From Acidobacteriota bacterium (GTDB taxonomy: Bacteria; Acidobacteriota; UBA890; WLXD01), in NCBI GenBank assembly GCA_965205505.1, contig CBDBHB010000009.1, positions 2,560,001 through 2,624,000 on the forward strand: a stretch of DNA of 64,000 bases, given 5' to 3'. Below, in pieces: positions 40,336 through 51,168 of the stretch (position 1 is the first letter of the stretch; each line of letters begins with the position of its first letter). A program made the translations under genes and the position numbers. The notes below the pieces were generated by a model that had not been told where the DNA came from, did not search any database, and was given only the letters and a program-made list of their open reading frames with translations.

Positions 40336-40408
40336 GCTGGCGTAGCTCAGTTGGGAGAGCAGCTGATTTGTAATCAGCAGGTCGGAGGTTCGAGTCCTCT
40401 CGCCAGCT
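40336..40408 (+). tRNA. tRNA-Thr(TGT); integration site (attL)
   Basis: GCTGGCG/CGCCAGC acceptor stem, CTGAT-TTGTAA-TCAG anticodon arm, GGTTCGAGTCC. Confidence 0.95.
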
Positions 40409-41187
40409 CCTCGAAAGTCCCATGAGATCAATGGGTTATGGGATTATTCGGTATCCGCCTATCTCAAGAAAGATCATTCGGGGTCGTCCTGGGGGTCGGT
40501 ATCGGTCCGACTTGTGCTTCTCGACGCTCGAGCCGCTTCCCGCTGCCGCAGCTCCTGTCTCCGCCGCTCGTTCGCGACCCATGGCCGCGGTGGCAGAGAC
40601 GCACCCGCTCCTGGCCAACGACGTAGTCGACCAGGCGCATCGGAGCCTGGATTGTGGCGCCTGGTGAGGCGAATGAGACTTTGGTGGTTGCAGCTGCTCG
40701 AGTGCGCATGCGACACCCAGGCGCCGGAGCGTTGAGACCCCCTGCGGCGCCCGGTTCTAGCCTCTACAAGGCCCGTAGACGCGCATGGGTGCGGTGCAGG
40801 TAAGTAGCTGTCGAAAGCTCGACGCGCATGGGAGGCGCGCAACCGCGTACACGTAGAGTCACCGGCCCCCTCCAACGGCCCTACGTCGTCGCCTGTGCGT
40901 GCTGTGCATGGATCTCGAGGCGCTGACCTTGCCCATTTGCCCCATTTGCGCGCTCGAGGCTCGGCGGCCGTTAGAAACGATCTGTGGGCCTCGTAGGGGG
41001 CCGGCCTCCGAGATCACGCCGCGTAGCAGCCCGCTAGCAGCGTCTCGACACGAGATGACCCCGACCAGCAGCGCCTCGCCCGCGATGCGCCGGTTTGCTA
41101 TGCCGCTCGGTCACTCCCGCACGGTCTGGGGCTCGAATGTGGCATCATTTCCAGACTATCGAAGTAGATCACCTGCCGAGGTCCGGC

Positions 41188-41865
41188 GTGCTCGACGCTG
41201 AAAGTGTTTTCTGGTTCGCCAGTACCATCGCCCAGTGTGTGGTGGCGTTGTTAGCGTTCGCTGCGTTCGTGGCAGTGTGGCGGCTCGATTCCATCACAGA
41301 TTCTCGCAAGGGTACGGCTGAACGCTTGAAAGAAGACATACGGACCGCGCTGAGCCGCTACGCGACCACGGCACAGACGGTCTTGGCCTTCTTTGAGGCA
41401 CAGGGGAGAACCTTCCCGGAAGCCATCATCTGCGGTGATCTCGGGGGGATATGGCAGCAATCACATCGCAATTGGGCCACGCTACACGAAATCGGTCAGG
41501 TGCTTACAGCGCATCGTGACAAGCTATGCTGTTCCAGTCCCAGCGCCGCGATGGACGAGGCGTGGCTCGCCACGAACGGCATCACACGGTCACTTCTCGA
41601 CGATATCGAGAAGTACACGAAGCAGATTGCTCCGACAGTCAAATTGATCGGATCTTTGCGCCGTTGGCTCCGACTAGTTACCTGTTGCAGCTTGAGCACG
41701 ATAGCGCTGAGCCTGATCGTGATCGCTGGAACGAAGCTCCTCGTAGAACACCATCCGGCGCTCTACTTCGCGTTTCTTGTGCTAGCGACGGCAACAGCCG
41801 CAACGCTGCTGTCAGCGAGCCAGCTCGGTCGAGCCATCTTCCAACAGCCAGAAGCGTGGGAGTGA
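41188..41865 (+). CDS. Hypothetical membrane protein (1 N-terminal + 2 C-terminal TM helices), element cargo; start uncertain
   Basis: Long ORF with hydrophobic segments flanking a helical soluble region. Confidence 0.6.
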   Translation: MLDAESVFWFASTIAQCVVALLAFAAFVAVWRLDSITDSRKGTAERLKEDIRTALSRYATTAQTVLAFFEAQGRTFPEAIICGDLGGIWQQSHRNWATLHEIGQVLTAHRDKLCCSSPSAAMDEAWLATNGITRSLLDDIEKYTKQIAPTVKLIGSLRRWLRLVTCCSLSTIALSLIVIAGTKLLVEHHPALYFAFLVLATATAATLLSASQLGRAIFQQPEAWE

Positions 41866-42008
41866 CGCGCGGCGCCGTGCGCGTAGGAGGCGAGTCCAAA
41901 ACGCGGTGCACTATTCGCCCGAACGGCAGCAAGTAGCGCCGCGCAACGAACCATCCTCCTAGCGTGGTAGGGTCAGCGTCGCAACTCTCTCCACCAGGAG
42001 GCACCCTG

Positions 42009-42533
42009 ATGGGACGCCTAATTCTCTTCGCGGCCACTCTGTTTCTGTTGGCCGCGCCTGCCAGCGCCCAGCAACAAGACGATCGTATCCTGAAAGGGGT
42101 TGTGGACTGGAGCTCCCGAGTCGAGCATCGAGACGACGGACTGAGCATTCTGACTTACGACCTATCAGAATCATCGAGGAATCCACGTGCTAAGGAAGTA
42201 TTTACCTACATCGTCTTTACGTCGATAGACCCTCCTGGTCTAAGCCCAATCGTTACCTTAAATCTAACTCCTCCTGAATTCTCTCGGAACTACTACACTC
42301 TGGCGGTGGTGAACTTCGGAAACCGAACTGCTACCGGAAAAGTCACCCTGAAACTCACCGGTCCTACCAGATGGACTCGAACATTCCGAAACGCGACGGT
42401 GCCGGGTCCTGGCTACGCGGTGTTCTATTTCCAGGGACAACCGCTGAATCGAATAGGGAACTACCTTCTCAAGGGATCGTTCACGCGTGCAGGGTCGATG
42501 AAGTCTCGCTTCTGCGCTGGATGCCTCCGCTAG
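42009..42533 (+). CDS. Hypothetical secreted beta-rich protein, element cargo
   Basis: AGGAG RBS, signal peptide ending ASA-Q, visibly lower GC. Confidence 0.7.
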   Translation: MGRLILFAATLFLLAAPASAQQQDDRILKGVVDWSSRVEHRDDGLSILTYDLSESSRNPRAKEVFTYIVFTSIDPPGLSPIVTLNLTPPEFSRNYYTLAVVNFGNRTATGKVTLKLTGPTRWTRTFRNATVPGPGYAVFYFQGQPLNRIGNYLLKGSFTRAGSMKSRFCAGCLR

Positions 42534-42939
42534 AGCCCGGCGCTGACAATGACCGGGGCTTGCGGGCGGGAGCCCCTTTCCCCGAGTCAAACTGAGACAC
42601 TACCCAAGTTCGCGCCGTTTCCGTCGCTTGGCGCCCCGGGCTACGGCTGTCATCAACGGCCAGGCGTGTCCCCGCTGCGGATTCCGGGCGCTCTCGCCAG
42701 GTCCTCGAGGGCCTTCCGAGCCTCCGACAGCGTAATCACGGCCTCACGCAGATGAGCGTCGACTAGGCCGTCGGTGAACCACTCACTGTCGCCCGCGTGC
42801 GAAGCAGGCGGCCACAGGTCTTGCTGACGACAACGCCGAAGTGTCGCTGTTTCAATGCGTCGATAAGGCGGCAAGCTGTGCGGGTCGTTCAACGATTCAG
42901 GCATCCCACCTCTGTGGACAGCACTTCGGCTTGCTCCAG

Positions 42940-43194
42940 CACTGCGCAGGGTGTCGTTACCGAGCACATGGACGGCGCTGTCATTGGTCTCCAGCGCATC
43001 GTAGAAGGCCAGCTCATCCTTGGATAGCCTCAGATCTTCACCGCGGGCACTTGCCTCACGCATCTCCGGGGGTCAACTGGATCAGCTCCGTGATCACCTG
43101 TGCGGTCTCAATGGCTCCGCCCGACAAACAGGAAAGGGCGGCGCAGGCCGTGCTCCAGCAAGCGGTGGTGCTGTCCGTCGGCTGGGCGGCGTGA
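42940..43194. pseudogene. Two back-to-back fragments of a type I restriction HsdR C-terminal region
   Basis: Minus strand: [45 protein letters not shown]; plus strand from 43117: PPDKQERAAQAVLQQAVVLSVGWAA*. Confidence 0.8.
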
Positions 43195-43274
43195 CACCAG
43201 ATCTGGGGCCGCAGTTGGCGATACGACGCACTGGCCTGCGTCTACGAGGCACGTGCCCCCCGTGCCCCGGTCCT

Positions 43275-44240
43275 TCAGCGTCTCGCCCCGGTCCGCGGCA
43301 GCGCGGCGGAGATCGCCACGAGCTTCGTCCGCACCGCGGCCGCATGCCCGCTCCACTCCGCTATCACTTCGTCCTTCGCCACGAGCTCACCGCCCCACAC
43401 CTTGAGCGTCTGCTCCGCAAGGTGTCGCTGCGCCCGCTCCTTTAGCGCCCTCTCCCCCACCGCGTCCAGGAACTCGGCAGGCTGCGCAGTCTCGTCGCGC
43501 TCCGATACCCACGCCTCGACGTCTTCGAGCCGGTAGCCATGTGGCCGACCGACCGACCCACGACGCGCCACCGGCATCCCGGCGTCTACCATCTTGGAAA
43601 TCCCTTTCACGCTCCGGCCCAACGCCGCCGACAGCTCCGCACGGCCTAGCAGCTTCTCGACTCCCAGGATCTCGTCGGTGTGCGCGCGACCCAGGAACGA
43701 GCCGCCCTCGAAAGCTTCGCCCGGCTTTTGGAGTTTCCACAACTCTTCCACAGCCGCGAGGTATTCCCCGGGAAGGTCACCACCGGCAAAGAGCGTGAAG
43801 TTCTCGAGGTGCTTGTTCGCGTTCAGGTTCGCCGACGTCGTGTAGAGCACGTCCAGCTTCCCGCCCAGCACGAGGACGAATTTCGCGTGCGAGTTCCACA
43901 CCCGGAGCGCCTGGTCGCCGAATAGGTGGCGCGCGCGGCCACAGTATCGCGGCTGCCTCGATTCGAAGGAACGGTCAACGAGTAGACGGAGAGGCTTGAT
44001 CCGCCCGTCCTGTAGCAGCCGCTCCGCCCGCTCAATGTCGGCGTTCGCCGCCGTCCAGGTCGACACCGTGACGTCGCTCGGGCCGCACCGCTCGAGCAGC
44101 TCTTCTATAGCGTCGATCAGCGACCAAGTCCCATCGGAGAGGCCATGGATCGAGCAACCGTCCGCGAGCCCTTCGAACGCCTCCGAGGGTCCTTTGCTGT
44201 TGCGACCGACCCACGCCGAGCGCTCCTGACCTTCAGGCAC
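43275..44240 (-). CDS. Fusion of a PLD-like nuclease domain and a lambda Nu1-like small terminase (wHTH + coiled coil)
   Basis: HAKF...TSANLN; LGRAELSAALGRSVKGISKMVDAGMPVARRGSVGRPHGYRLEDVEAW resembles the gpNu1 N-terminus. Confidence 0.72.
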   Translation of the reverse strand: MPEGQERSAWVGRNSKGPSEAFEGLADGCSIHGLSDGTWSLIDAIEELLERCGPSDVTVSTWTAANADIERAERLLQDGRIKPLRLLVDRSFESRQPRYCGRARHLFGDQALRVWNSHAKFVLVLGGKLDVLYTTSANLNANKHLENFTLFAGGDLPGEYLAAVEELWKLQKPGEAFEGGSFLGRAHTDEILGVEKLLGRAELSAALGRSVKGISKMVDAGMPVARRGSVGRPHGYRLEDVEAWVSERDETAQPAEFLDAVGERALKERAQRHLAEQTLKVWGGELVAKDEVIAEWSGHAAAVRTKLVAISAALPRTGARR

Positions 44241-44264
44241 CCCAACCCCCCCCTAGGGCCGCAC

Positions 44265-44325
44265 AAAAAATTAACGAGATTCTGCGCCGTCCACTCCCGT
44301 TAGCGATGACCTCGGCGAAGAACCT
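44265..44325 (-). other. Putative lambda-like cos site (cosQ-cosN-AT-rich tract)
   Basis: Minus strand AGGTTCT-18bp-ACGGGAGTGGACGGCGCAGAATCTCGTTAATTTTTT immediately upstream of the terS-like gene. Confidence 0.55.
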
Positions 44326-44381
44326 ATAGGCACCCCCACCCCCTGCCGGTGGCCGCGCTCGAAGCGATCGCCGCCGCTTGA

Positions 44382-45476
44382 TCACGATGTCACCGGCCGA
44401 CGGTGCTCGTAGCCGTCGTGGCGAGTCTCGGCGTAGGGATCTTCCAGGTCCGCGAACTCCTGCAAGAACCGCTGGCCGGATTCGTCCAGGTCGGCGAGCG
44501 GTACAAGGTCGCCAACGGTCTTGACGTCCTCGCCGCCGAGTTGGTCTTTCCAGTGGTCAGGCTTCGGCCTCGGCTTCGGTGGCTCGATCACCGTTGAACG
44601 TTGCTCATCGGTGGACGTCGTTGCCGGCGTTGCCGGTGGTCGTGCTGGCTCGCTCGCTTGCTCCGCTCTCATCTCTGCATGTGCCTCGGCGAGCGCTTGG
44701 TCGAGGTCGACAGGCTTGCCCCTTACCCCGCCGCTTTTTGCGGCTGTCGGTGGTGGTGAGTCACCCGGATGTGGCGGTTCCTCTCCGATGGGCCCGCCGC
44801 TCGATTTCCACGGATCGGCGCCCAAATCGCCGCCGGCCTCCTTGTCTCTCTCAGGCGCCCCGACGGACGGCGGCGGCGGAGCCTCCAGCGCAGCCGCAGC
44901 CGCGGCCGGTTTCCTCTGTTCAATGAAGGGGGGGGCGCTGTAGGCGCCCCCCTTCTCAGTTACTTGGACAGTTAGGGGGCCTGTGAGTCCGGGTTGAATG
45001 GACTGTGAGTCCGGGTTGGAGCACTTTTTGGACTGTGTGGCCGGGTTGGACTTGGGGCCAGTCCCTCCACCGCGTAGCAGCCAATACGTATTCGAGCGGC
45101 GCCCGTGGCTGCGGCCGGTGAGTAGCTTCCCCTTCCGTTCTAGCTCGCGAATCCCGCGCCGGATTGTCCGCGCCGAAACTCGCGCTTTGGCTGCCATTAA
45201 CTCGACGGACGGAAACGATTTGCCGGTGCCTTGGCTCGCGTGGCGCAGCAGCATAAATTCCACAAACTTCGCGCGCCATGAGGTCTCGTCGTCGTCGCAG
45301 ATTTCCGCCAAGGCTGTCAGCGCCATAAATCCCCTCTTCGGCTCTGGCGTTTCCGGTGGCTTCGATGCCATCGCCATCGGGTCACCGAGCACCACGGCGG
45401 CGGTGCCGCCTGCCCTTTCAAGAACGTCGCGCGGAGCGGCACGCTCCACTGGCGCCAGCGTCGCGGACCTAGACAT
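44382..45476 (-). CDS. HTH-domain replication initiator-like protein
   Basis: SFPSVELMAAKARVSARTIRRGIRELERKG...RSNTYWL wHTH; internal iteron-like repeats. Confidence 0.72.
   Translation of the reverse strand: MSRSATLAPVERAAPRDVLERAGGTAAVVLGDPMAMASKPPETPEPKRGFMALTALAEICDDDETSWRAKFVEFMLLRHASQGTGKSFPSVELMAAKARVSARTIRRGIRELERKGKLLTGRSHGRRSNTYWLLRGGGTGPKSNPATQSKKCSNPDSQSIQPGLTGPLTVQVTEKGGAYSAPPFIEQRKPAAAAAALEAPPPPSVGAPERDKEAGGDLGADPWKSSGGPIGEEPPHPGDSPPPTAAKSGGVRGKPVDLDQALAEAHAEMRAEQASEPARPPATPATTSTDEQRSTVIEPPKPRPKPDHWKDQLGGEDVKTVGDLVPLADLDESGQRFLQEFADLEDPYAETRHDGYEHRRPVTS
44981..45050. repeat. Three iteron-like direct repeats CTGTGwGkCCGGGTTG-type (putative origin)
   Basis: Copies start at 44981, 45003 and 45033; adjacent GC hairpin at ~44925-44955. 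Confidence 0.75.
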
Positions 45477-45732
45477 GACGCTCCGCCCAGGCTTTCGGAT
45501 TCGCCCACCACTCAAGTACTTCGGCGGCGTCGTAGAGTTTGCGCCCGCCAACTTCTCGGGGCTCCGGAAACTTCCCATTGCGGCGCAGGCGCCATCTGGT
45601 CTTACGACTCAGGAGTCCCAGGCGATCGAGATCCCGCTCGCTCCACGCGAGTTGTCCAAGCAACTCGTCGGCGTTGCTCGCCTGCTCAGGCTGCTGGCGC
45701 GGCTTACTTACCACGGATCGCTGACGTTTCAC
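45469..45732 (-). CDS. AlpA-like HTH transcriptional regulator
   Basis: LSRKTRWRLRRNGKFPEPREVGGRKLYDAAEVLEW. Confidence 0.75.
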   Translation of the reverse strand: MKRQRSVVSKPRQQPEQASNADELLGQLAWSERDLDRLGLLSRKTRWRLRRNGKFPEPREVGGRKLYDAAEVLEWWANPKAWAERHV

Positions 45733-45736
45733 CGCC

Positions 45737-45946
45737 CTACTCCCGGATTCCGCCGGTGACGCTACTGCGTCGGCTATCTATCAGGCGCTCGAGATCCGAT
45801 CGTCTGATGAGGCGGACACCGGACGGCGTCCGAGTCGCGCGAAGCTTTCCGCAGTTGGTCCACAGCCGGACTGTCGCCGGAGTTACGCCCGCGAGCCGAG
45901 CGGCTTCCGCTGGAAGTAGGACGGGGTCGTTCGATGCTTCTTTCAT
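45737..45946 (-). CDS. Excisionase-like / MerR-type HTH DNA-binding protein
   Basis: PAEAARLAGVTPATVRLW...GKLRATRTPSGVRLIRRSDLE. Confidence 0.8.
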   Translation of the reverse strand: MKEASNDPVLLPAEAARLAGVTPATVRLWTNCGKLRATRTPSGVRLIRRSDLERLIDSRRSSVTGGIRE

Positions 45947-46054
45947 TTAGCTAGGCATTCTGCCAGCCTGGCTTGTGTGGTGCAACATATAACATATAGA
46001 ATTACGTTTAAACGATTGGCGCGGAAATCGAGCCCTTTGTCTGTGAGGAGAGAG

Positions 46055-46777
46055 ATGCCGAAGCGAACTCCATCAATCAGCCCCGAGATCAGGGCCGGCC
46101 TTGCCCGGCACAAGGCAGAGAAAGCGAATCCGGCGTATCAGGAGTGGCTCTCGAAGCTGAAGGCAGCATCGAAGCGAATCGGCGACACTGCTGCCGCTCG
46201 GCTCACGTGGCTGTGCGCGTTCGCGCGAGAGAATCTGGAAACGGCCGATCGGGTCGAGCTCGGAGAGTGCTTAGTCGCCTTCGGCCACGGCGGGTTCCCA
46301 GCGTTCCTCGTCGGCGGCGTCGATTTGCCACCCCCACTCGCCGACGAAGATCTCGATCGGCTCCATAAGGAGGTCCGCGGGCTGTTGAGGAAGCTTGTCG
46401 GTGAGCCGGCGGGCCAGGCGGTCGAGGTGCCCTTTGTCGAAGGAGCACGACCGCATCTCGTTCGCGCGACGAATGTCGGTGACCAGCCGGCCATCTTCGG
46501 GCTGACCTGGAGCCAACAAACCGTCTATAGCGCCGTCTTCACGGAACTCCTCGAAATCGTGAACCGCCACGGAGACCGCTTGCGCGCGTGCGACGAATGC
46601 GGGGGTCCGTTCGTAAGGATCCGGCGCCAACAATACTGCTCGCGGGCGTGCTCACAGCGCCGCCGGTCCGCTAGGTGGTACGAGCGGCATGGGGAGGAAG
46701 CCCGCCAACGAAGGAAGGACGACTACCAAAGGAAGGTCGCTCCGGCCAGGGTCAGGCGCCGCAAGAGGGGAGGCTAA
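46055..46777 (+). CDS. CGNR-type zinc finger protein
   Basis: RLRACDECGGPFVRIRRQQYCSRAC followed by a basic tail; GAGGAG RBS. Confidence 0.7.
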   Translation: MPKRTPSISPEIRAGLARHKAEKANPAYQEWLSKLKAASKRIGDTAAARLTWLCAFARENLETADRVELGECLVAFGHGGFPAFLVGGVDLPPPLADEDLDRLHKEVRGLLRKLVGEPAGQAVEVPFVEGARPHLVRATNVGDQPAIFGLTWSQQTVYSAVFTELLEIVNRHGDRLRACDECGGPFVRIRRQQYCSRACSQRRRSARWYERHGEEARQRRKDDYQRKVAPARVRRRKRGG

Positions 46778-46786
46778 GTGAGACAG

Positions 46787-48076
46787 CTACGCAAGCGCGG
46801 TCTCCCGCCCGAGCGCCACCACCTTGCCTGCGGTCGCCGGGTCGAGCGCAGCGACGTGCTGACCCCATAATTGGAGCGCCTCGCGCTTTTCGCCGAGCAA
46901 ATCATATGCGGTGTAATGCACCGCTGTCGTGCCCACCGGCGCATGCCCGGCGATCGCCGAGACGACGCTGCCAGGGGTCTTGCAGATGCGCTTGAGGCCG
47001 TCGAGGACCGTGCCTCGCAGATCTCGAATCCACCATTCTTCACCGAGGTCAGCAGCGTCGCGAACGCGCTGGTAGGCGTCCCGGTAGTTCGTGAAGGCCA
47101 AGCCGTCGCGAGTCGGCGACGGGAACATGAAGCCGCTGCGATCCTCGAAGGCGTGCAGCTCGGATAGGACTGCGCGCGGTTGCGACGAAAGCGGTATCAG
47201 GTGATGCTCCGGCGCGTGACGCGAGCGTCGCAGCTTCGTTCGGGCCTTGGGAATACCCCACACCCCGTCGCCATCAGTATCGACTTCATGCCACGCGCCC
47301 TCGAAGACCTCCATGGGGCGAAGGCCGGTGAGTGCCAGTAACCGAAAGCCGAGCCCGGCAAGGCCACCTTCTCTCCGGAAAAGGGGCAGGAGAGTCCGGA
47401 GCTCCTCGTCGGCCAAGATCCGCTTTCGCGGCTTCTCGAGGGCCGGATCCTGGAGGCGAGCCGCCGGATTCCCCGTGAGGCCAGGCTCGTCGCGGTCGAG
47501 GCCCCACGTGTAGATACGGGACAGCAGCGCCGCGGTTCGATTCCGGGCGGTATAGGCACCGCGGTCCTCGTACTCGTCGAGCAGCTCGACGATGTCACGC
47601 TTCCGGATCTCGCCCGCCGGCCGATCACCCCACCGGCCGATCAGGACCTTCTCGACGAGGTTTTCTTCTGCCCGAGCCGACTTTGCGACCTTCCTTACCT
47701 TCGCGTACCGAGCGATGTACTCACGCGCGAGTTGCTTGAACGTGACGGCCTCTCGCGCCTCCCGTCGCTCGGCGGCCGGATCGAGCCCGATGCGGACATC
47801 CTGCAGGACCTTCTTGGCGCGCTTACGCGCCTCGGCCAGCGATATTCGCTCCGGGTCCGTCGCGCCCGGTCCTTTCCTCGGTGAGTCCTCAGTGAGTCCC
47901 AGCGTTACCCGCGGGCGCTTCCCGCCCTTCCAGTAGGAAACGGTGAAGGTCTTCCGCCCGGAAGGGCTCACGCGAAGGATCAATCCGGGCACCTCGATGT
48001 CGTGATAATCTGTGCGCCCTGCCTTCGGCACCGATAAGCTTTTGATCCCTTGCGCGGTCAACTTCGTCTTCGGCAT
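46787..48076 (-). CDS. Tyrosine integrase with an N-terminal arm-binding domain (P4-like)
   Basis: PGLILRVSPSGRKTF arm domain; LTGLRP (R), IRDLRGT, AGH...HY catalytic residues. Confidence 0.93.
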   Translation of the reverse strand: MPKTKLTAQGIKSLSVPKAGRTDYHDIEVPGLILRVSPSGRKTFTVSYWKGGKRPRVTLGLTEDSPRKGPGATDPERISLAEARKRAKKVLQDVRIGLDPAAERREAREAVTFKQLAREYIARYAKVRKVAKSARAEENLVEKVLIGRWGDRPAGEIRKRDIVELLDEYEDRGAYTARNRTAALLSRIYTWGLDRDEPGLTGNPAARLQDPALEKPRKRILADEELRTLLPLFRREGGLAGLGFRLLALTGLRPMEVFEGAWHEVDTDGDGVWGIPKARTKLRRSRHAPEHHLIPLSSQPRAVLSELHAFEDRSGFMFPSPTRDGLAFTNYRDAYQRVRDAADLGEEWWIRDLRGTVLDGLKRICKTPGSVVSAIAGHAPVGTTAVHYTAYDLLGEKREALQLWGQHVAALDPATAGKVVALGRETALA

Positions 48077-48118
48077 ATGCTTCTCGGGGTCAGTTCGGGG
48101 TCGGTAGTCAGCCGCCAC

Positions 48119-48147
48119 TTGCTGACACAATCCGACCCCAGTATACT
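48119..48147 (+). promoter_or_regulatory. Outward-facing sigma70-type promoter in the element's right arm
   Basis: TTGCTG-17bp-TATACT. Confidence 0.5.
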
Positions 48148-48283
48148 CGCTAATACGCCTTAGCTATAGGGTATTAGCCATTTCATGCAGGGTCACGGAG
48201 TGGCGTTCGGGGGCAATATTTGATGATTTGTAATCAGCAGGTCGGAGGTTCGAATCCGCCCGCCAGCTCTGGTTGTACCTAGA

Positions 48284-48366
48284 GGAGAGTTGCCCGAGCG
48301 GCCAAAGGGAGCAGACTGTAAATCTGCCGGCTAATGCCTACGGAGGTTCGAATCCTCCACTCTCCA
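48284..48366 (+). tRNA. tRNA-Tyr(GTA)
   Basis: GGAGAGT/ACTCTCC stem, GCAGA-CTGTAAA-TCTGC, long variable arm. Confidence 0.95.
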
Positions 48367-48585
48367 CCTTCGTCTCTTGGCGCCTGAGTCACCAGCCGGC
48401 CGCCATCCGGCACCACCGCGACGACCTGTTGGTGGCCGGCGCCAGCGTCGGCACCAGGCCCGGCGTCCGCCTGTTCGACTACACTGGCAGCCGGCTTCTC
48501 GACCTCGAGGTCCTCTCCGCCGGCGTCCAGTAACTTCTGGCCGTACGGGTGCGGTTGCTCGAGCGCTGGCCTCCGCGCCCCCGAC

Positions 48586-48614
48586 TTGGCGCCTGTGTTG
48601 AGGGGTGATAGCAT
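48586..48614 (+). promoter_or_regulatory. Sigma70-type promoter upstream of tRNA-Gly/Thr-tuf
   Basis: TTGGCG-17bp-TAGCAT with extended -10 TG. Confidence 0.45.
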
Positions 48615-48658
48615 ACCCGTTCTCGCACAGGAGAACTCTGTGCACACCACGGTACGAG

Positions 48659-48732
48659 GCGGGAATAGCTCAATCTGGTAGAGCGCCAGCCTTCCAAGCT
48701 GGGGGTTGCGGGTTCGAGTCCCGTTTCCCGCT
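48659..48732 (+). tRNA. tRNA-Gly(TCC)
   Basis: GCGGGAA/TTCCCGC stem, CCAGC-CTTCCAA-GCTGG. Confidence 0.95.
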
Positions 48733-48813
48733 CTGTGCGCGGCGTCGGGGCGAATCGGCTGGCCATCCACACGGGACACACCGACGCGATAGCCACGTTT
48801 TGCTTTCGGGAGG

Positions 48814-48888
48814 GCCCACGTGGCTCAGTGGTAGAGCGCTTCCTTGGTAAGGAAGAGGTCACCGGTTCAATCCCGGTCGTGGGCTCCA
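48814..48888 (+). tRNA. tRNA-Thr(GGT)
   Basis: GCCCACG/CGTGGGC stem, TTCCT-TGGTA-AGGAA, encoded CCA. Confidence 0.95.
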
Positions 48889-48953
48889 CCAGTTTGATCG
48901 AAACACATGCGGCAACCGAACAGCGTGCCTGAACTACGTCAGAGGAGAATCTG

Positions 48954-50147
48954 ATGGCGAAGGAGAAATTCGAACGGACGAAGCCGCATGTAAACGTGGG
49001 GACGATTGGGCACGTGGACCACGGCAAGACGACGTTGACGCAGGCGATCACGCTGATTTTGTCGAAGTTGGGACGAGCGGACTACACGCCGTTCGATGAG
49101 ATCGACAAGGCGCCCGAGGAGAGAGAGCGAGGGATCACGATCGCGATAGCGCACGTTGAGTACGAGTCGGAGACAAGGCATTACGCGCACGTGGACTGCC
49201 CAGGGCACGCGGATTACATCAAGAACATGATCACGGGTGCGGCGCAGATGGACGGAGCGATCTTGGTGGTGTCGGCGGCAGATGGGCCGATGCCGCAGAC
49301 GCGGGAGCACATATTGCTGGCAAGGCAGGTGGGAGTGCCGGCGATGGTGGTGTTTCTGAACAAGGTCGACATGGTGGACGACGAGGAGCTGCTGGAGCTG
49401 GTGGAGCTGGAGGTACGGGAGCTGCTGTCGACGTATGAGTTTCCAGGGGACGATCTTCCGGTGGTAAAGGGATCGGCGCTGCAGGCGGCGGAGTCGGGAG
49501 ATCCGGAGTCGGAGGCCGGCAAGCAGATTCTCGAGTTGGTGGAAGCGCTTGACAGCTATATACCGGAGCCGAAGCGAGCGCTGGACCAGGCTTTCATGAT
49601 GGCGATCGAGGACGTGTTCACGATCTCTGGACGAGGCACGGTGGTAACGGGCCGAATCGACCGGGGAGTGGTGAAGACGGGAGAAGAGGTGGAGATCGTC
49701 GGGATTCGCGAGACGCAGAAGAAGGTGGTGACGGGAGTAGAGATGTTCCGGAAGATTCTCGATGAGGGTCAAGCCGGAGACAACGTGGGCGTGTTGTTGA
49801 GGGGAACGGACCGAGATGATGTGGAGCGGGGGCAGGTGCTGGCGAAGCCAGGAACGATCAAGCCGCACACGAGGTTTTCGGCCGAGGTGTATGTGTTGAC
49901 CAAGGATGAGGGAGGTCGACATACGCCGTTCTTCAAGGGATACCGGCCGCAGTTTTATTTCAGGACGACGGATGTGACCGGCTCGGTAGAGTTGCCCGAA
50001 GGCGTGGAGATGGTGATGCCCGGGGACAACGTGACGATCGCCGGAGATTTGATCACACCGATCGCGATGGAGAAGGGTCTGCGGTTTGCTATCCGCGAGG
50101 GCGGACGAACGGTGGGCGCTGGCACGATCACTGATATCCACGAGTAG
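48954..50147 (+). CDS. tuf: Elongation factor Tu
   Basis: [29 protein letters not shown]. Confidence 0.99.
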
Positions 50148-50154
50148 ATACGAG

Positions 50155-50228
50155 AGGGCAGTAGCTCTAATTGGCAGAGCACCGGACTCCAAATCCGGGG
50201 GTTGTGGGTTCGAATCCCTCCTGCCCTG
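50155..50228 (+). tRNA. tRNA-Trp(CCA)
   Basis: AGGGCAG/CTGCCCT stem, CCGGA-CTCCAAA-TCCGG. Confidence 0.95.
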
Positions 50229-50264
50229 CCTCTTGAACGCGACGAGGCGGTAGAAGTAGCGGGC

Positions 50265-50459
50265 ATGTGGAATCGCTGGAAGACGTTCGTTCGTGAGGTC
50301 AGGGACGAGGTGAAGAAGGTCACCTGGCCAAAGCGCAACGAGGTTTATGGCACCACCACGGTGGTGATCATGACTTGCATCATTTTCGGTGTGTATTTGT
50401 GGTTCGTCGATGTCGTCATGAGTCGCATCATCACGTGGCTCTACGCGGCGTTCGGTTAG
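50265..50459 (+). CDS. secE: Preprotein translocase subunit SecE
   Basis: EVKKVTWP + single TM helix; position before nusG. Confidence 0.93.
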   Translation: MWNRWKTFVREVRDEVKKVTWPKRNEVYGTTTVVIMTCIIFGVYLWFVDVVMSRIITWLYAAFG

Positions 50460-50481
50460 CACGGCTGAGATCGAGACCAAC

Positions 50482-51168
50482 GTGACCAAACAGGCCGATA
50501 AGAACCTCGAGGCAGCGGCCCGGGCCCTGGGCCTAGAGCCTGATATCTCTGTCGCCGAGGAACCCGCGCCGTCCGCCGAAGAAGCGCCCGTCGAGGCACT
50601 ACCCGACGGCGGATCCAGCGTTCAGCCGGACCCGGAAGACGGCACGAGCTGGTACGTCGTTCATACCTATTCAGGCTACGAGCGCAAGGTACAGCAGAGC
50701 TTGGAGGAGCGCGTACGTACGCTCGGCCTGGGCGAGGAGATTCGCGAGATCCTGATCCCGACCGAAGACGTCGTGGAGATGAAATCGGGCAAGAAGGTGG
50801 TCACTTCCAAGAAGTTCTTTCCCGGCTACTTGCTGGTGCGTATGAAAATGGCGGAGGAGCTCTGGCATTTGGTCAAGAACACGCCGCGCGTCACCGGGTT
50901 CGTCGGCGAGGGACGCAACGCCATCGCGCTCACCCAGTTGGAGGTCGACAAGATACTCAATCGCATGGAGGAGTCGGTCGAGGCGCCGAAGCCCAAGTTC
51001 CAGTTCGCCAAGGGCGAGACGGTGCGGATCGTCGACGGGCCGTTCACCAATTTCTCGGGCAAGGTTGACGAGGTCGACAACCGCCGCAGCACCCTCAAGG
51101 TGATGGTATCGATCTTCGGCCGCGCCACGCCCGTTGAGCTTGACTTCTTTCAGGTCGAGAAGGCCTGA
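50482..51168 (+). CDS. nusG: Transcription termination/antitermination factor NusG with an acidic N-terminal extension
   Basis: WYVVHTYSGYE, FFPGY, KOW motif DGPF, IFGRATPVEL. Confidence 0.97.
   Translation: MTKQADKNLEAAARALGLEPDISVAEEPAPSAEEAPVEALPDGGSSVQPDPEDGTSWYVVHTYSGYERKVQQSLEERVRTLGLGEEIREILIPTEDVVEMKSGKKVVTSKKFFPGYLLVRMKMAEELWHLVKNTPRVTGFVGEGRNAIALTQLEVDKILNRMEESVEAPKPKFQFAKGETVRIVDGPFTNFSGKVDEVDNRRSTLKVMVSIFGRATPVELDFFQVEKA

Follow-up and report, generated by a model that had tools for sequence, protein, structure and literature searches.

Genomic locus and insertion site

The 64,000-nt stretch of contig CBDBHB010000009.1 analysed here (the window), from an Acidobacteriota bacterium, carries an island of 7.86 kb inserted at a tRNA-Thr(TGT) gene. 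The island encodes an integrase, helix-turn-helix (HTH) regulators, a replication initiator and a phospholipase D (PLD)-type nuclease fused to a terminase small subunit (TerS), and was examined as a candidate phage satellite. Overall, it is best read as a small integrative, self-replicating island belonging to a genus-restricted family. The genome that holds it (G000) comprises 9 contigs and 5.98 Mb with a completeness of 96%.

The integration target, tRNA-Thr(TGT) (40336-40410, plus strand), was called by ARAGORN and scored 71 bits against the Rfam tRNA model, and it was left intact by the insertion. A repeat search showed a direct repeat with 43 of 46 nt identical at a spacing of 7,860 bp. 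The left copy, attL (40364-40409), spans the tRNA from the anticodon loop to the 3' end, while attR (48224-48269), which was also placed by alignment with the empty site of congeners, is a partial tRNA-Thr copy with 3 mismatches located 14 nt ahead of tRNA-Tyr (48284-48368; ARAGORN). In all three congeners with the locus (G018, G019 and G020), the same flank was present and tRNA-Thr(TGT) and tRNA-Tyr were only 14-35 nt apart, which identified the 7.86 kb as an insertion. An att-bounded element of about 7.8 kb in this tRNA gene, as proposed by an earlier sequence-only reading of the window, was therefore borne out. The attL sequence is letter for letter the native tRNA of G019 and G020, and attR holds the mismatches followed by host flank; this pattern fits a crossover near the tRNA 3' end, and the integrase gene would lie beside the element-derived att arm. 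An Rfam search of the element returned the two tRNAs only, and promoter and terminator scans showed no excess over shuffled controls. The host locus is a conserved cluster of tRNA-Thr, tRNA-Tyr, tRNA-Gly, tRNA-Thr, tuf, tRNA-Trp, secE and nusG (48284-51168 for the part from tRNA-Tyr onwards).

The nuclease-TerS fusion and its leader

The fusion gene (43275-44240, minus strand) encodes a protein of 321 aa in which a PLD-superfamily (NucT-like) nuclease is joined to a Nu1-type TerS. Residues 19-176 matched phrog_16945 'endonuclease' (3.9e-31) and residues 196-314 matched phrog_57 terminase small subunit (2e-14, profile positions 11-142 of 199). The lambda Nu1 DNA-binding domain among the PDB sequences showed a weak match (E 0.036), and the full-length sister fusions also matched PF07471 Phage_Nu1 and PF07278, both under the cut-offs. 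An AlphaFold model built with an alignment of 49 sequences reached a pLDDT of 85, while a model built with 12 sequences reached 55 and was set aside. The best solved matches of the accepted model in Foldseek were all of the PLD superfamily with nucleases first (E 1e-4 to 1e-3), the top ones being NgoAVII R protein, Zucchini, SauUSI, NucT and Nuc, and the TerS half showed a winged HTH (wHTH) and helices. In addition, H118, K120, S136 and N138 of the HxK...SxN motif were nearly invariant across the 49 sequences. Pfam PLDc_2 did not match the fusion, a profile of the nuclease family had no match among PDB sequences, and no PADLOC model corresponded to the protein. The PHROG matches, the Foldseek matches and the near-invariant catalytic-motif residues nevertheless confirmed the PLD-TerS fusion that had been read from the sequence.

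The full-length fusions, of 387-401 aa, have a further C-terminal segment that includes a basic tail. The window copy and one sister copy (copy 2) share a single breakpoint after '...KLVAISAALPRT', followed by shared foreign sequence with an hsdR fragment. The C-terminus of lambda Nu1 is the part that binds the large terminase subunit (TerL).

Upstream of the fusion gene, a non-coding leader of about 107 nt (44241-44347, minus strand) was recognised by its conservation in sister copies. It was kept in all five intact sister copies beside differing upstream genes, and holds a pair of 22-nt direct repeats (44229-44250 and 44322-44343). The leader is a candidate promoter, TerS-binding site or cos/pac region. 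The cos-like site named in the earlier reading was not confirmed beyond the presence of this conserved block.

Integrase, regulatory and replication genes

A P4/CP4-57-type tyrosine integrase of 447 aa is encoded at 46787-48130 (minus strand). It was assigned with Pfam, PHROG and NCBIfam, with matches to Arm-DNA-bind_3 (1.7e-14), Phage_int_M (7e-9) and phrog_1 (1.2e-44), and the earlier call of an integrase stands. From the right on the minus strand, the operon order is a 69-aa HTH protein, an 87-aa HTH protein, the initiator and the 321-aa fusion. The 69-aa excisionase/MerR-type protein (45737-45946, minus strand), which opens this leftward operon, matched HTH_17 (4.9e-9), MerR (7e-8), TIGR01764 (9e-6) and the BldC family, in agreement with the xis-like HTH first proposed. 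The 87-aa protein (45469-45732, minus strand) is AlpA-like or excisionase-like, with matches to HTH_17 (3.1e-5), Phage_AlpA (2.6e-3), and phrog_66 and phrog_2790 (about 1e-6).

On the plus strand (45977-46777), a gene divergent from xis and convergent with the integrase gene encodes a protein of 266 aa with a C-terminal CxxC...CxxxC zinc ribbon and a basic tail (phrog_1271, 1.7e-8, residues 199-252). This protein is a candidate master regulator. Its first description as a CGNR zinc finger was not confirmed: Pfam gave no match at E≤0.1 or 0.01, and the sole lead was a neighbouring ESM-Atlas cluster with zf-CGNR in 24% of its members.

The wHTH (HTH_36) lambda-O-like replication initiator (44382-45578, minus strand) was assigned with Pfam (HTH_36, 2.4e-8) and with six PHROG families of 'replication initiation (O-like)' (1e-7 to 2e-3). 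Its true start is probably M35 at 45476, and homology to the initiator of another sister element (copy 3) begins at 45432. A repeat search found three 22-nt iterons within the gene (44977-45050, consensus GGACTGTGAGTCCGGGTTGG), which are presumed to form the origin of replication, and the earlier reading of an iteron-containing initiator was upheld. The copy 3 initiator gene also contains the same 20-mer three times, even though the two proteins are just 67-77% identical; this speaks for an origin of the lambda-O style. The regulatory, replication and integrase ORFs of the element are all open.

Cargo region and absence of virion genes

The left part of the island holds two cargo ORFs on the plus strand, of 256 aa (41095-41865) and 189 aa (41964-42533), neither of which had a match in Pfam, PHROG, NCBIfam or PADLOC. 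The second covers the lowest-GC part of the element (GC 0.536 at 42000-42499), and three paralogues of it (58, 58 and 42% identical) were present elsewhere on contig C9. An ORF of 136 codons follows at 42653-43063 (minus strand) with a match to the C-terminal domain of type I restriction HsdR (PF11867, 3.3e-10, residues 1-40); it was regarded as a pseudogene fragment because just the first 40 codons match that domain. The fragment is 97.8% identical at the matching position in copy 2. No capsid, portal, TerL, tail, lysis or primase family was found among the 11 scanned window ORFs with Pfam and PHROG, as the sequence alone had suggested, and no conjugation or packaging partner genes were found in the element with the same two databases.

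A family of sister elements

The search for related elements returned six fusion-gene loci in two genomes, namely the genome of the window and the congener G018, and showed that modules are swapped between them. Three full fusion genes with identities of 100, 91 and 82% are present in the own genome together with a single fragment, and G018 carries two full copies and one frameshifted copy. Among 401 sampled Acidobacteriota genomes, full fusions occurred in these two only and a fragment in G019.

Every fusion copy lies within an integrase-bearing island, and the integrases are 28% identical to each other or have no detectable similarity. Copy 2 has an integrase 28% identical to that of the window and a DUF3631 protein as its replication module. 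Copy 3 has yet another integrase and an initiator of the window type. The G018 elements encode DnaB-like/primase proteins, and one of them is located at tRNA-SeC. Shared by all copies are the fusion gene and the roughly 107 nt ahead of it, and nothing else. A 52-codon fragment of the fusion gene (residues 152-203) was found by tblastn at L010:10311-10463 (G000:C7:15308-15463), 94% identical to the window copy and about 1.2 kb from a tRNA-His/tRNA-Arg pair; the fragment is probably the relic of a further element.

This pattern bears on the view that the island is an autonomous integrative plasmid-like element, with the integrase and the iteron replicon as its core and the TerS-like gene as a relic, a DNA-binding regulator or a nuclease for its own replication or resolution. 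The intact and conserved initiator and iterons speak for such an element, as does the lack of conjugation or packaging partners. However, it is the fusion gene and not the replicon that is common to all family members, the replicons differ, and the fusion gene is strongly constrained (see below). An autonomous element of this kind was considered improbable.

Copy 2 is a 10.6-kb insertion for which the orthologous G018 site is empty, the flanks overlapping there by 11 nt. Two elements, those of the window and copy 2, are absent at the orthologous sites of a sister species whose flanks are 91-95% identical. A 32.5-kb stretch is bordered by tRNA-Thr(CGT) on one side and by a partial repeat of that tRNA, 40 nt long, on the other, and copy 3 occupies its integrase end. 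The general repeat search showed no att repeats at the sister elements, and the copy 3 repeat was located by BLAST with the att sequence. In addition, the integrase-regulator end of the island (about 45.5-48.1 kb) was recovered at 98-100% identity in contigs of sequencing runs belonging to four studies (P1-P4), and the window itself may have its source in one of these. A 9.7-kb metagenome contig of another study (run X6, record 26) carries the left end and the integrase-regulator end of the island at about 99% identity around a differing middle of about 6.3 kb, and is interpreted as a module-swapped variant of the window element. A metagenome scan gave five loci, with useful context in one (L056) only.

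Defence genes were found by PADLOC directly after the fusion gene in sister elements: PifA, PDC-S11, PD-T4-3 and QatA/C/D. Such cargo is typical of satellites according to the available text of a published survey (PMC10085698). The 32.5-kb stretch with copy 3 (G000:C9:2956518-2989122; loci L061 and L009) is a composite defence island with an AbiJ-like PDC-S32, a PDC-M54A STAND NTPase of 1,653 aa, an Mrr fragment, PifA, a NucS-like PDC-S11 protein, IS elements and a second partial integrase. At L001:11526-17463 (G018 contig 13), a PD-T4-3-like GIY-YIG gene and QatA, an unidentified gene, QatC and QatD lie directly downstream of a full-length nuclease-TerS gene, on the island adjoining tRNA-SeC.

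Decay of terL, selection and packaging pedigree

Behind the stop codon of the fusion gene, the three full-length copies retain a gpA-type terL only as its first 25-40 codons, and copy 3 has in addition a frameshifted piece from the interior of terL (residues 194-486 of 622). No intact TerL, portal, capsid, tail or lysis gene was present at any of the five fusion loci that were scanned by family; the sixth (L002) was searched by tblastn with TerL and portal only and gave no match. The sequence-only reading had singled out, as the finding that would speak for a prophage, relatives with the same genes followed by terL, portal and capsid. One part of this was found, as terL does follow the fusion gene, but only as stubs and a pseudogene and never within a full prophage. 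Short N-terminal fragments of gpA-type TerL (residues about 38-99 or 132-191), some with internal stops, are also scattered in the own genome (C7:465452-465619, C9:62421-62543 and C2:16401-16580) and in G018 (C15:225180-225347, C15:219491-219619 and C7:27230-27358).

In the related genome G006, a contig of 40.7 kb carries a stand-alone TerS with 40% identity to the TerS half of the fusion, and an intact TerL gene and a portal gene come after it. Together with the terL remnants, this indicates that the packaging module descends from a lambda-type operon from which terL was lost. The island appears to go back to the early region of a lambda-like (Nu1/gpA, cos-type) temperate phage together with the first gene of its packaging module. 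The G006 locus (L033, contig 2) is phage-sized, with a Nu1-type TerS, a gpA-type TerL of 622 aa and a portal of 581 aa, and could serve as a model of the helper type. Three other stand-alone TerS proteins (P0071, P0046 and P0113) show 62-64% identity to the TerS half.

When the fusion copies were compared, the nuclease half had a dN/dS of 0.05-0.09 and the TerS half one of 0.11-0.24, with dS values of mostly 0.5-1.2. The only low-dS pair was the two G018 copies in the TerS half (dS 0.08). The pair that shares the truncation, window and copy 2, was also constrained (dN/dS 0.07-0.14, dS 0.55-0.59). A recent duplication was ruled out as the origin of the copies by the dS of 0.5-1.2 between them. 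The terL-less state of the fusion, and even its truncated state, thus appears to be old and maintained, which argues against inert remnants.

The possibility that the island is the inert remnant of a deleted lambda-like prophage was examined against these data. The terL stubs and terL pseudogene after the fusion in sister copies would fit a remnant, as would the hsdR pseudogene and truncated TerS of the window. On the other hand, the regulatory, replication and integrase ORFs are all open, dN/dS is far below 1 over a dS of 0.5-1.2, two elements are missing from orthologous sites with flanks of 91-95% identity, and the integrase-side module recurs at 98-100% identity in the contigs of four studies and with a differing middle in X6. 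The selection and mobility data made an inert remnant the least likely of the alternatives, with a very low probability.

The same nuclease family in ordinary phages

A tblastn search of the fusion against GenBank phages matched the nuclease half only, in 57 records that were mostly Arthrobacter and Gordonia phages. The matching proteins, annotated as 'NucT-like nuclease', were 32-39% identical to residues 20-185 of the fusion and belong to the same PHROG family. The nuclease gene was located 0-940 nt upstream of terS or terL in six of the seven phage contexts examined. In Arthrobacter phage Andrew (gp58), it overlaps the terS start, and in Gordonia phage BetterKatz (gp1) the genome end opens with the nuclease as gene 1, located 0.9 kb ahead of terS, terL and portal. 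Similarly, the nuclease lies 0-770 nt ahead of terS or terL in the metagenome locus L056 and in three of four IMG/VR contigs, the fourth (L081) having no recognised gene downstream of it. The neighbouring terminases in these contigs belong to different families (phrog_309/979, phrog_83/9 and phrog_2).

A HMMER search of 1.84 billion representative proteins gave 1,426 relatives of the nuclease at E≤0.001. Domains were scanned in all 30 listed representatives of at least 300 aa, leaving out three close relatives; 7 of these carry a phrog_57 TerS, 4 carry phrog_645 and 1 is fused to TerL. This last protein (P0178, 1,080 aa) joins a PLD-type nuclease to a large terminase subunit of phrog_9.

Interpretation and significance

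[quoted passage not shown] According to this reading, the P4-type integrase and the Xis/AlpA-like HTH proteins would excise the island from tRNA-Thr(UGU), and the O-like initiator would fire the iteron origin within its own gene. The nuclease-TerS would then bind a site in or near the conserved leader and divert the terminase and capsids of a helper to island DNA, and the island would re-integrate in a new host. In this reading, induction, helper dependence, the packaging site and transfer of the island are inferred. The set of parts, with cargo behind terS that in sister copies is often made up of defence genes, agrees with how satellites are described in general in the literature. Since the window copy is without the TerS C-terminus, its fusion protein may act through mixed oligomers with the TerS of a helper, or mainly as a site-directed nuclease.

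Several results weigh against the satellite reading. Alignments showed that the window TerS is without about 75 C-terminal residues, and an hsdR pseudogene lies after the truncated gene; the earlier reading had noted neither. The terL remnants after the fusion make an origin by prophage deletion real. The window element has neither a primase nor a capsid-remodelling gene. For the AlpA-like gene, the phrog_66 and phrog_2790 matches stand but the Pfam matches are weak, at 24.6 bits for HTH_17 against a cut-off of 27 and 18.1 bits for Phage_AlpA against 21, and the gene as first read was retained in part. Because the same nuclease family is found beside or fused to the terminase in ordinary phages, the fusion is a phage-type packaging gene and not a satellite invention. 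The 96%-complete own genome holds no intact gpA-type TerL, TerL_ATPase or lambda-type portal, and among 26 related genomes an intact gpA-type TerL was found in G006 only; a helper phage with matching packaging genes was found neither in the own genome nor in the 26 relatives. No attP/attB junction, circle or virion read was found in a search of the assembled contigs (Logan) of four sequencing runs. Finally, IMG/VR gave no relatives of the fusion alignment, a full-length fusion, the initiator or the zinc-ribbon protein. The anatomy, the family, the selection and the defence cargo thus agree with the earlier proposal of a new PICI-like satellite type, but they do not establish it as a new type, with no helper, excision junction or virion evidence found.

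Some tRNA-tRNA joints in these searches ('skips 7875/7888') had the appearance of excision. They were assigned to the tRNA clusters of other organisms because other letters lie between the two sides and their depth was 70-500 as against 4-13 for the organism. A decayed prophage piece was also observed in the own genome (G000:C9:3007505-3009754; L037:12505-14754), with a head-protease fragment and an ORF matching an HK97-type capsid; it adjoins IS transposases about 20 kb from copy 3.

Failure to find a helper in the own genome or in relatives also bears on a different role for the fusion, in which the island replicates and integrates without being packaged, moves by other means, and uses the fusion as an anti-phage effector whose wHTH targets the cos/pac of lambda-like phages while the PLD domain cuts. 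Purifying selection on the window and copy 2 genes (dN/dS 0.07-0.14) despite the missing TerS C-terminus would be accounted for, and the sister elements are defence islands (PifA, Qat, PD-T4-3 and PDC families). However, the fusion is unmatched by any PADLOC model, the full-length copies keep the entire TerS including the basic tail, and in phages the nuclease is a terminase partner and not a defence gene. Interference and a satellite life are also compatible. An anti-phage island that is not packaged was regarded as rather unlikely.

Two broader proposals were put forward jointly and tentatively, the pair being judged somewhat doubtful. The first is that the elements would make up a phage-satellite family, the first to be seen in Acidobacteriota, with a PLD-nuclease/TerS fusion, long kept in terL-less elements with defence cargo, as its defining feature. 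The second is that the PLD (NucT-like) nuclease family would serve the terminases of tailed phages as an accessory nuclease that has gone unrecognised, and would be analogous in function to the HNH partner found with terminases of the HK97 type. It is placed beside several unrelated TerS/TerL families, with repeated cases of fusion to TerS and a single one of fusion to TerL. According to the available text of the survey (PMC10085698), most of what is known of satellites comes from Proteobacteria and Firmicutes. If the satellite reading is true, the family would extend satellites to a major and poorly studied soil phylum and would explain the spread of the PifA and Qat defence systems there. 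As a recurrent terminase companion, the PLD-type nuclease may explain DNA cutting by some cos/pac phages, and the nuclease-TerS could let a satellite both redirect and sabotage packaging. A literature search found no account of PLD-terminase fusions or of Acidobacteriota satellites; the supplementary tables of satellite surveys, which lay outside the search, might list such elements.

Comparison with known systems

Among the closest known systems are the PICIs, both the SaPI-type with TerS and the AlpA-bearing Gram-negative type. As far as the available text of the survey describes them (PMC10085698), these share with the window element a small att-bounded island, an integrase, a divergent and putatively regulatory gene pair with a candidate AlpA/Xis-like HTH, a replicon of their own, a terS homologue that closes the core genes ahead of the accessory genes, and the lack of structural and lysis genes. 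Of the features by which PICIs are recognised, the window has the integrase at one end, the att site, the TerS packaging-hijack gene and no structural or lysis genes. The primase-replicase (pri-rep) module is missing: the window has an O-like initiator with in-gene iterons and no primase, while the sister elements have DnaB-like/primase or DUF3631 proteins. The window element also differs in having no capsid-morphogenesis, Ppi or Rpp gene, in a TerS that is fused to a PLD nuclease and C-terminally truncated, and in an integrase convergent with the regulator. At 7.86 kb it is smaller than the usual PICI (about 10-15 kb), and the available text of the survey does not mention its host phylum, Acidobacteriota (PMC10085698). 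It also does not resemble a defective prophage, since its core ORFs are open, its fusion is constrained and the insertion is absent in sister species.

The VEIMEs of marine bacteria share an integrase, AlpA, replication genes, TerS homologues, packaging-associated endonucleases (HNH) and the absence of capsid genes, according to the text available (PMC9618062). There, they are defined by concatemers recovered from virus particles, whereas IMG/VR scans gave no relatives of the window element, and their nuclease is of the HNH type while that of the window is PLD-type and fused to TerS. The phage-inducible chromosomal minimalist islands (PICMI) of Vibrionaceae share a very small size, the lack of capsid remodelling and defence cargo, but in the available text (bioRxiv 10.1101/2023.07.18.549517) they integrate at fis and have three core proteins and no terS, in contrast to the tRNA-Thr site and terS of the window element. 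P4-like satellites have just the integrase and the AlpA-like HTH in common with the window element; their psu, delta, sid, epsilon and alpha primase were unmatched in the window (PHROG and Pfam). Capsid-forming PICIs (cfPICI) have their own capsid, protease, portal and head-tail connector genes, none of which is present in the window.

Among phage packaging systems, lambda gpNu1/gpA is linked to the island by the phrog_57 match of the TerS half and by the gpA-type terL remnants after the sister copies. The window TerS differs from gpNu1 in its N-terminal nuclease, in the missing C-terminal region and in having no intact gpA alongside. In HK97-like cos phages, an HNH endonuclease partners the terminase. 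This HNH endonuclease-terminase partnership is mentioned in the available text of the VEIME report (PMC9618062). The HNH partner is a small nuclease gene directly upstream of terS/terL at the end of the genome, the same place as that of the PLD nuclease in six of seven contexts; the fold of the latter is PLD/HKD and not HNH. Finally, the 'NucT-like nuclease' of Arthrobacter and Gordonia phages belongs to the same PHROG family as the nuclease half of the fusion, and occurs as a stand-alone protein in complete phages.

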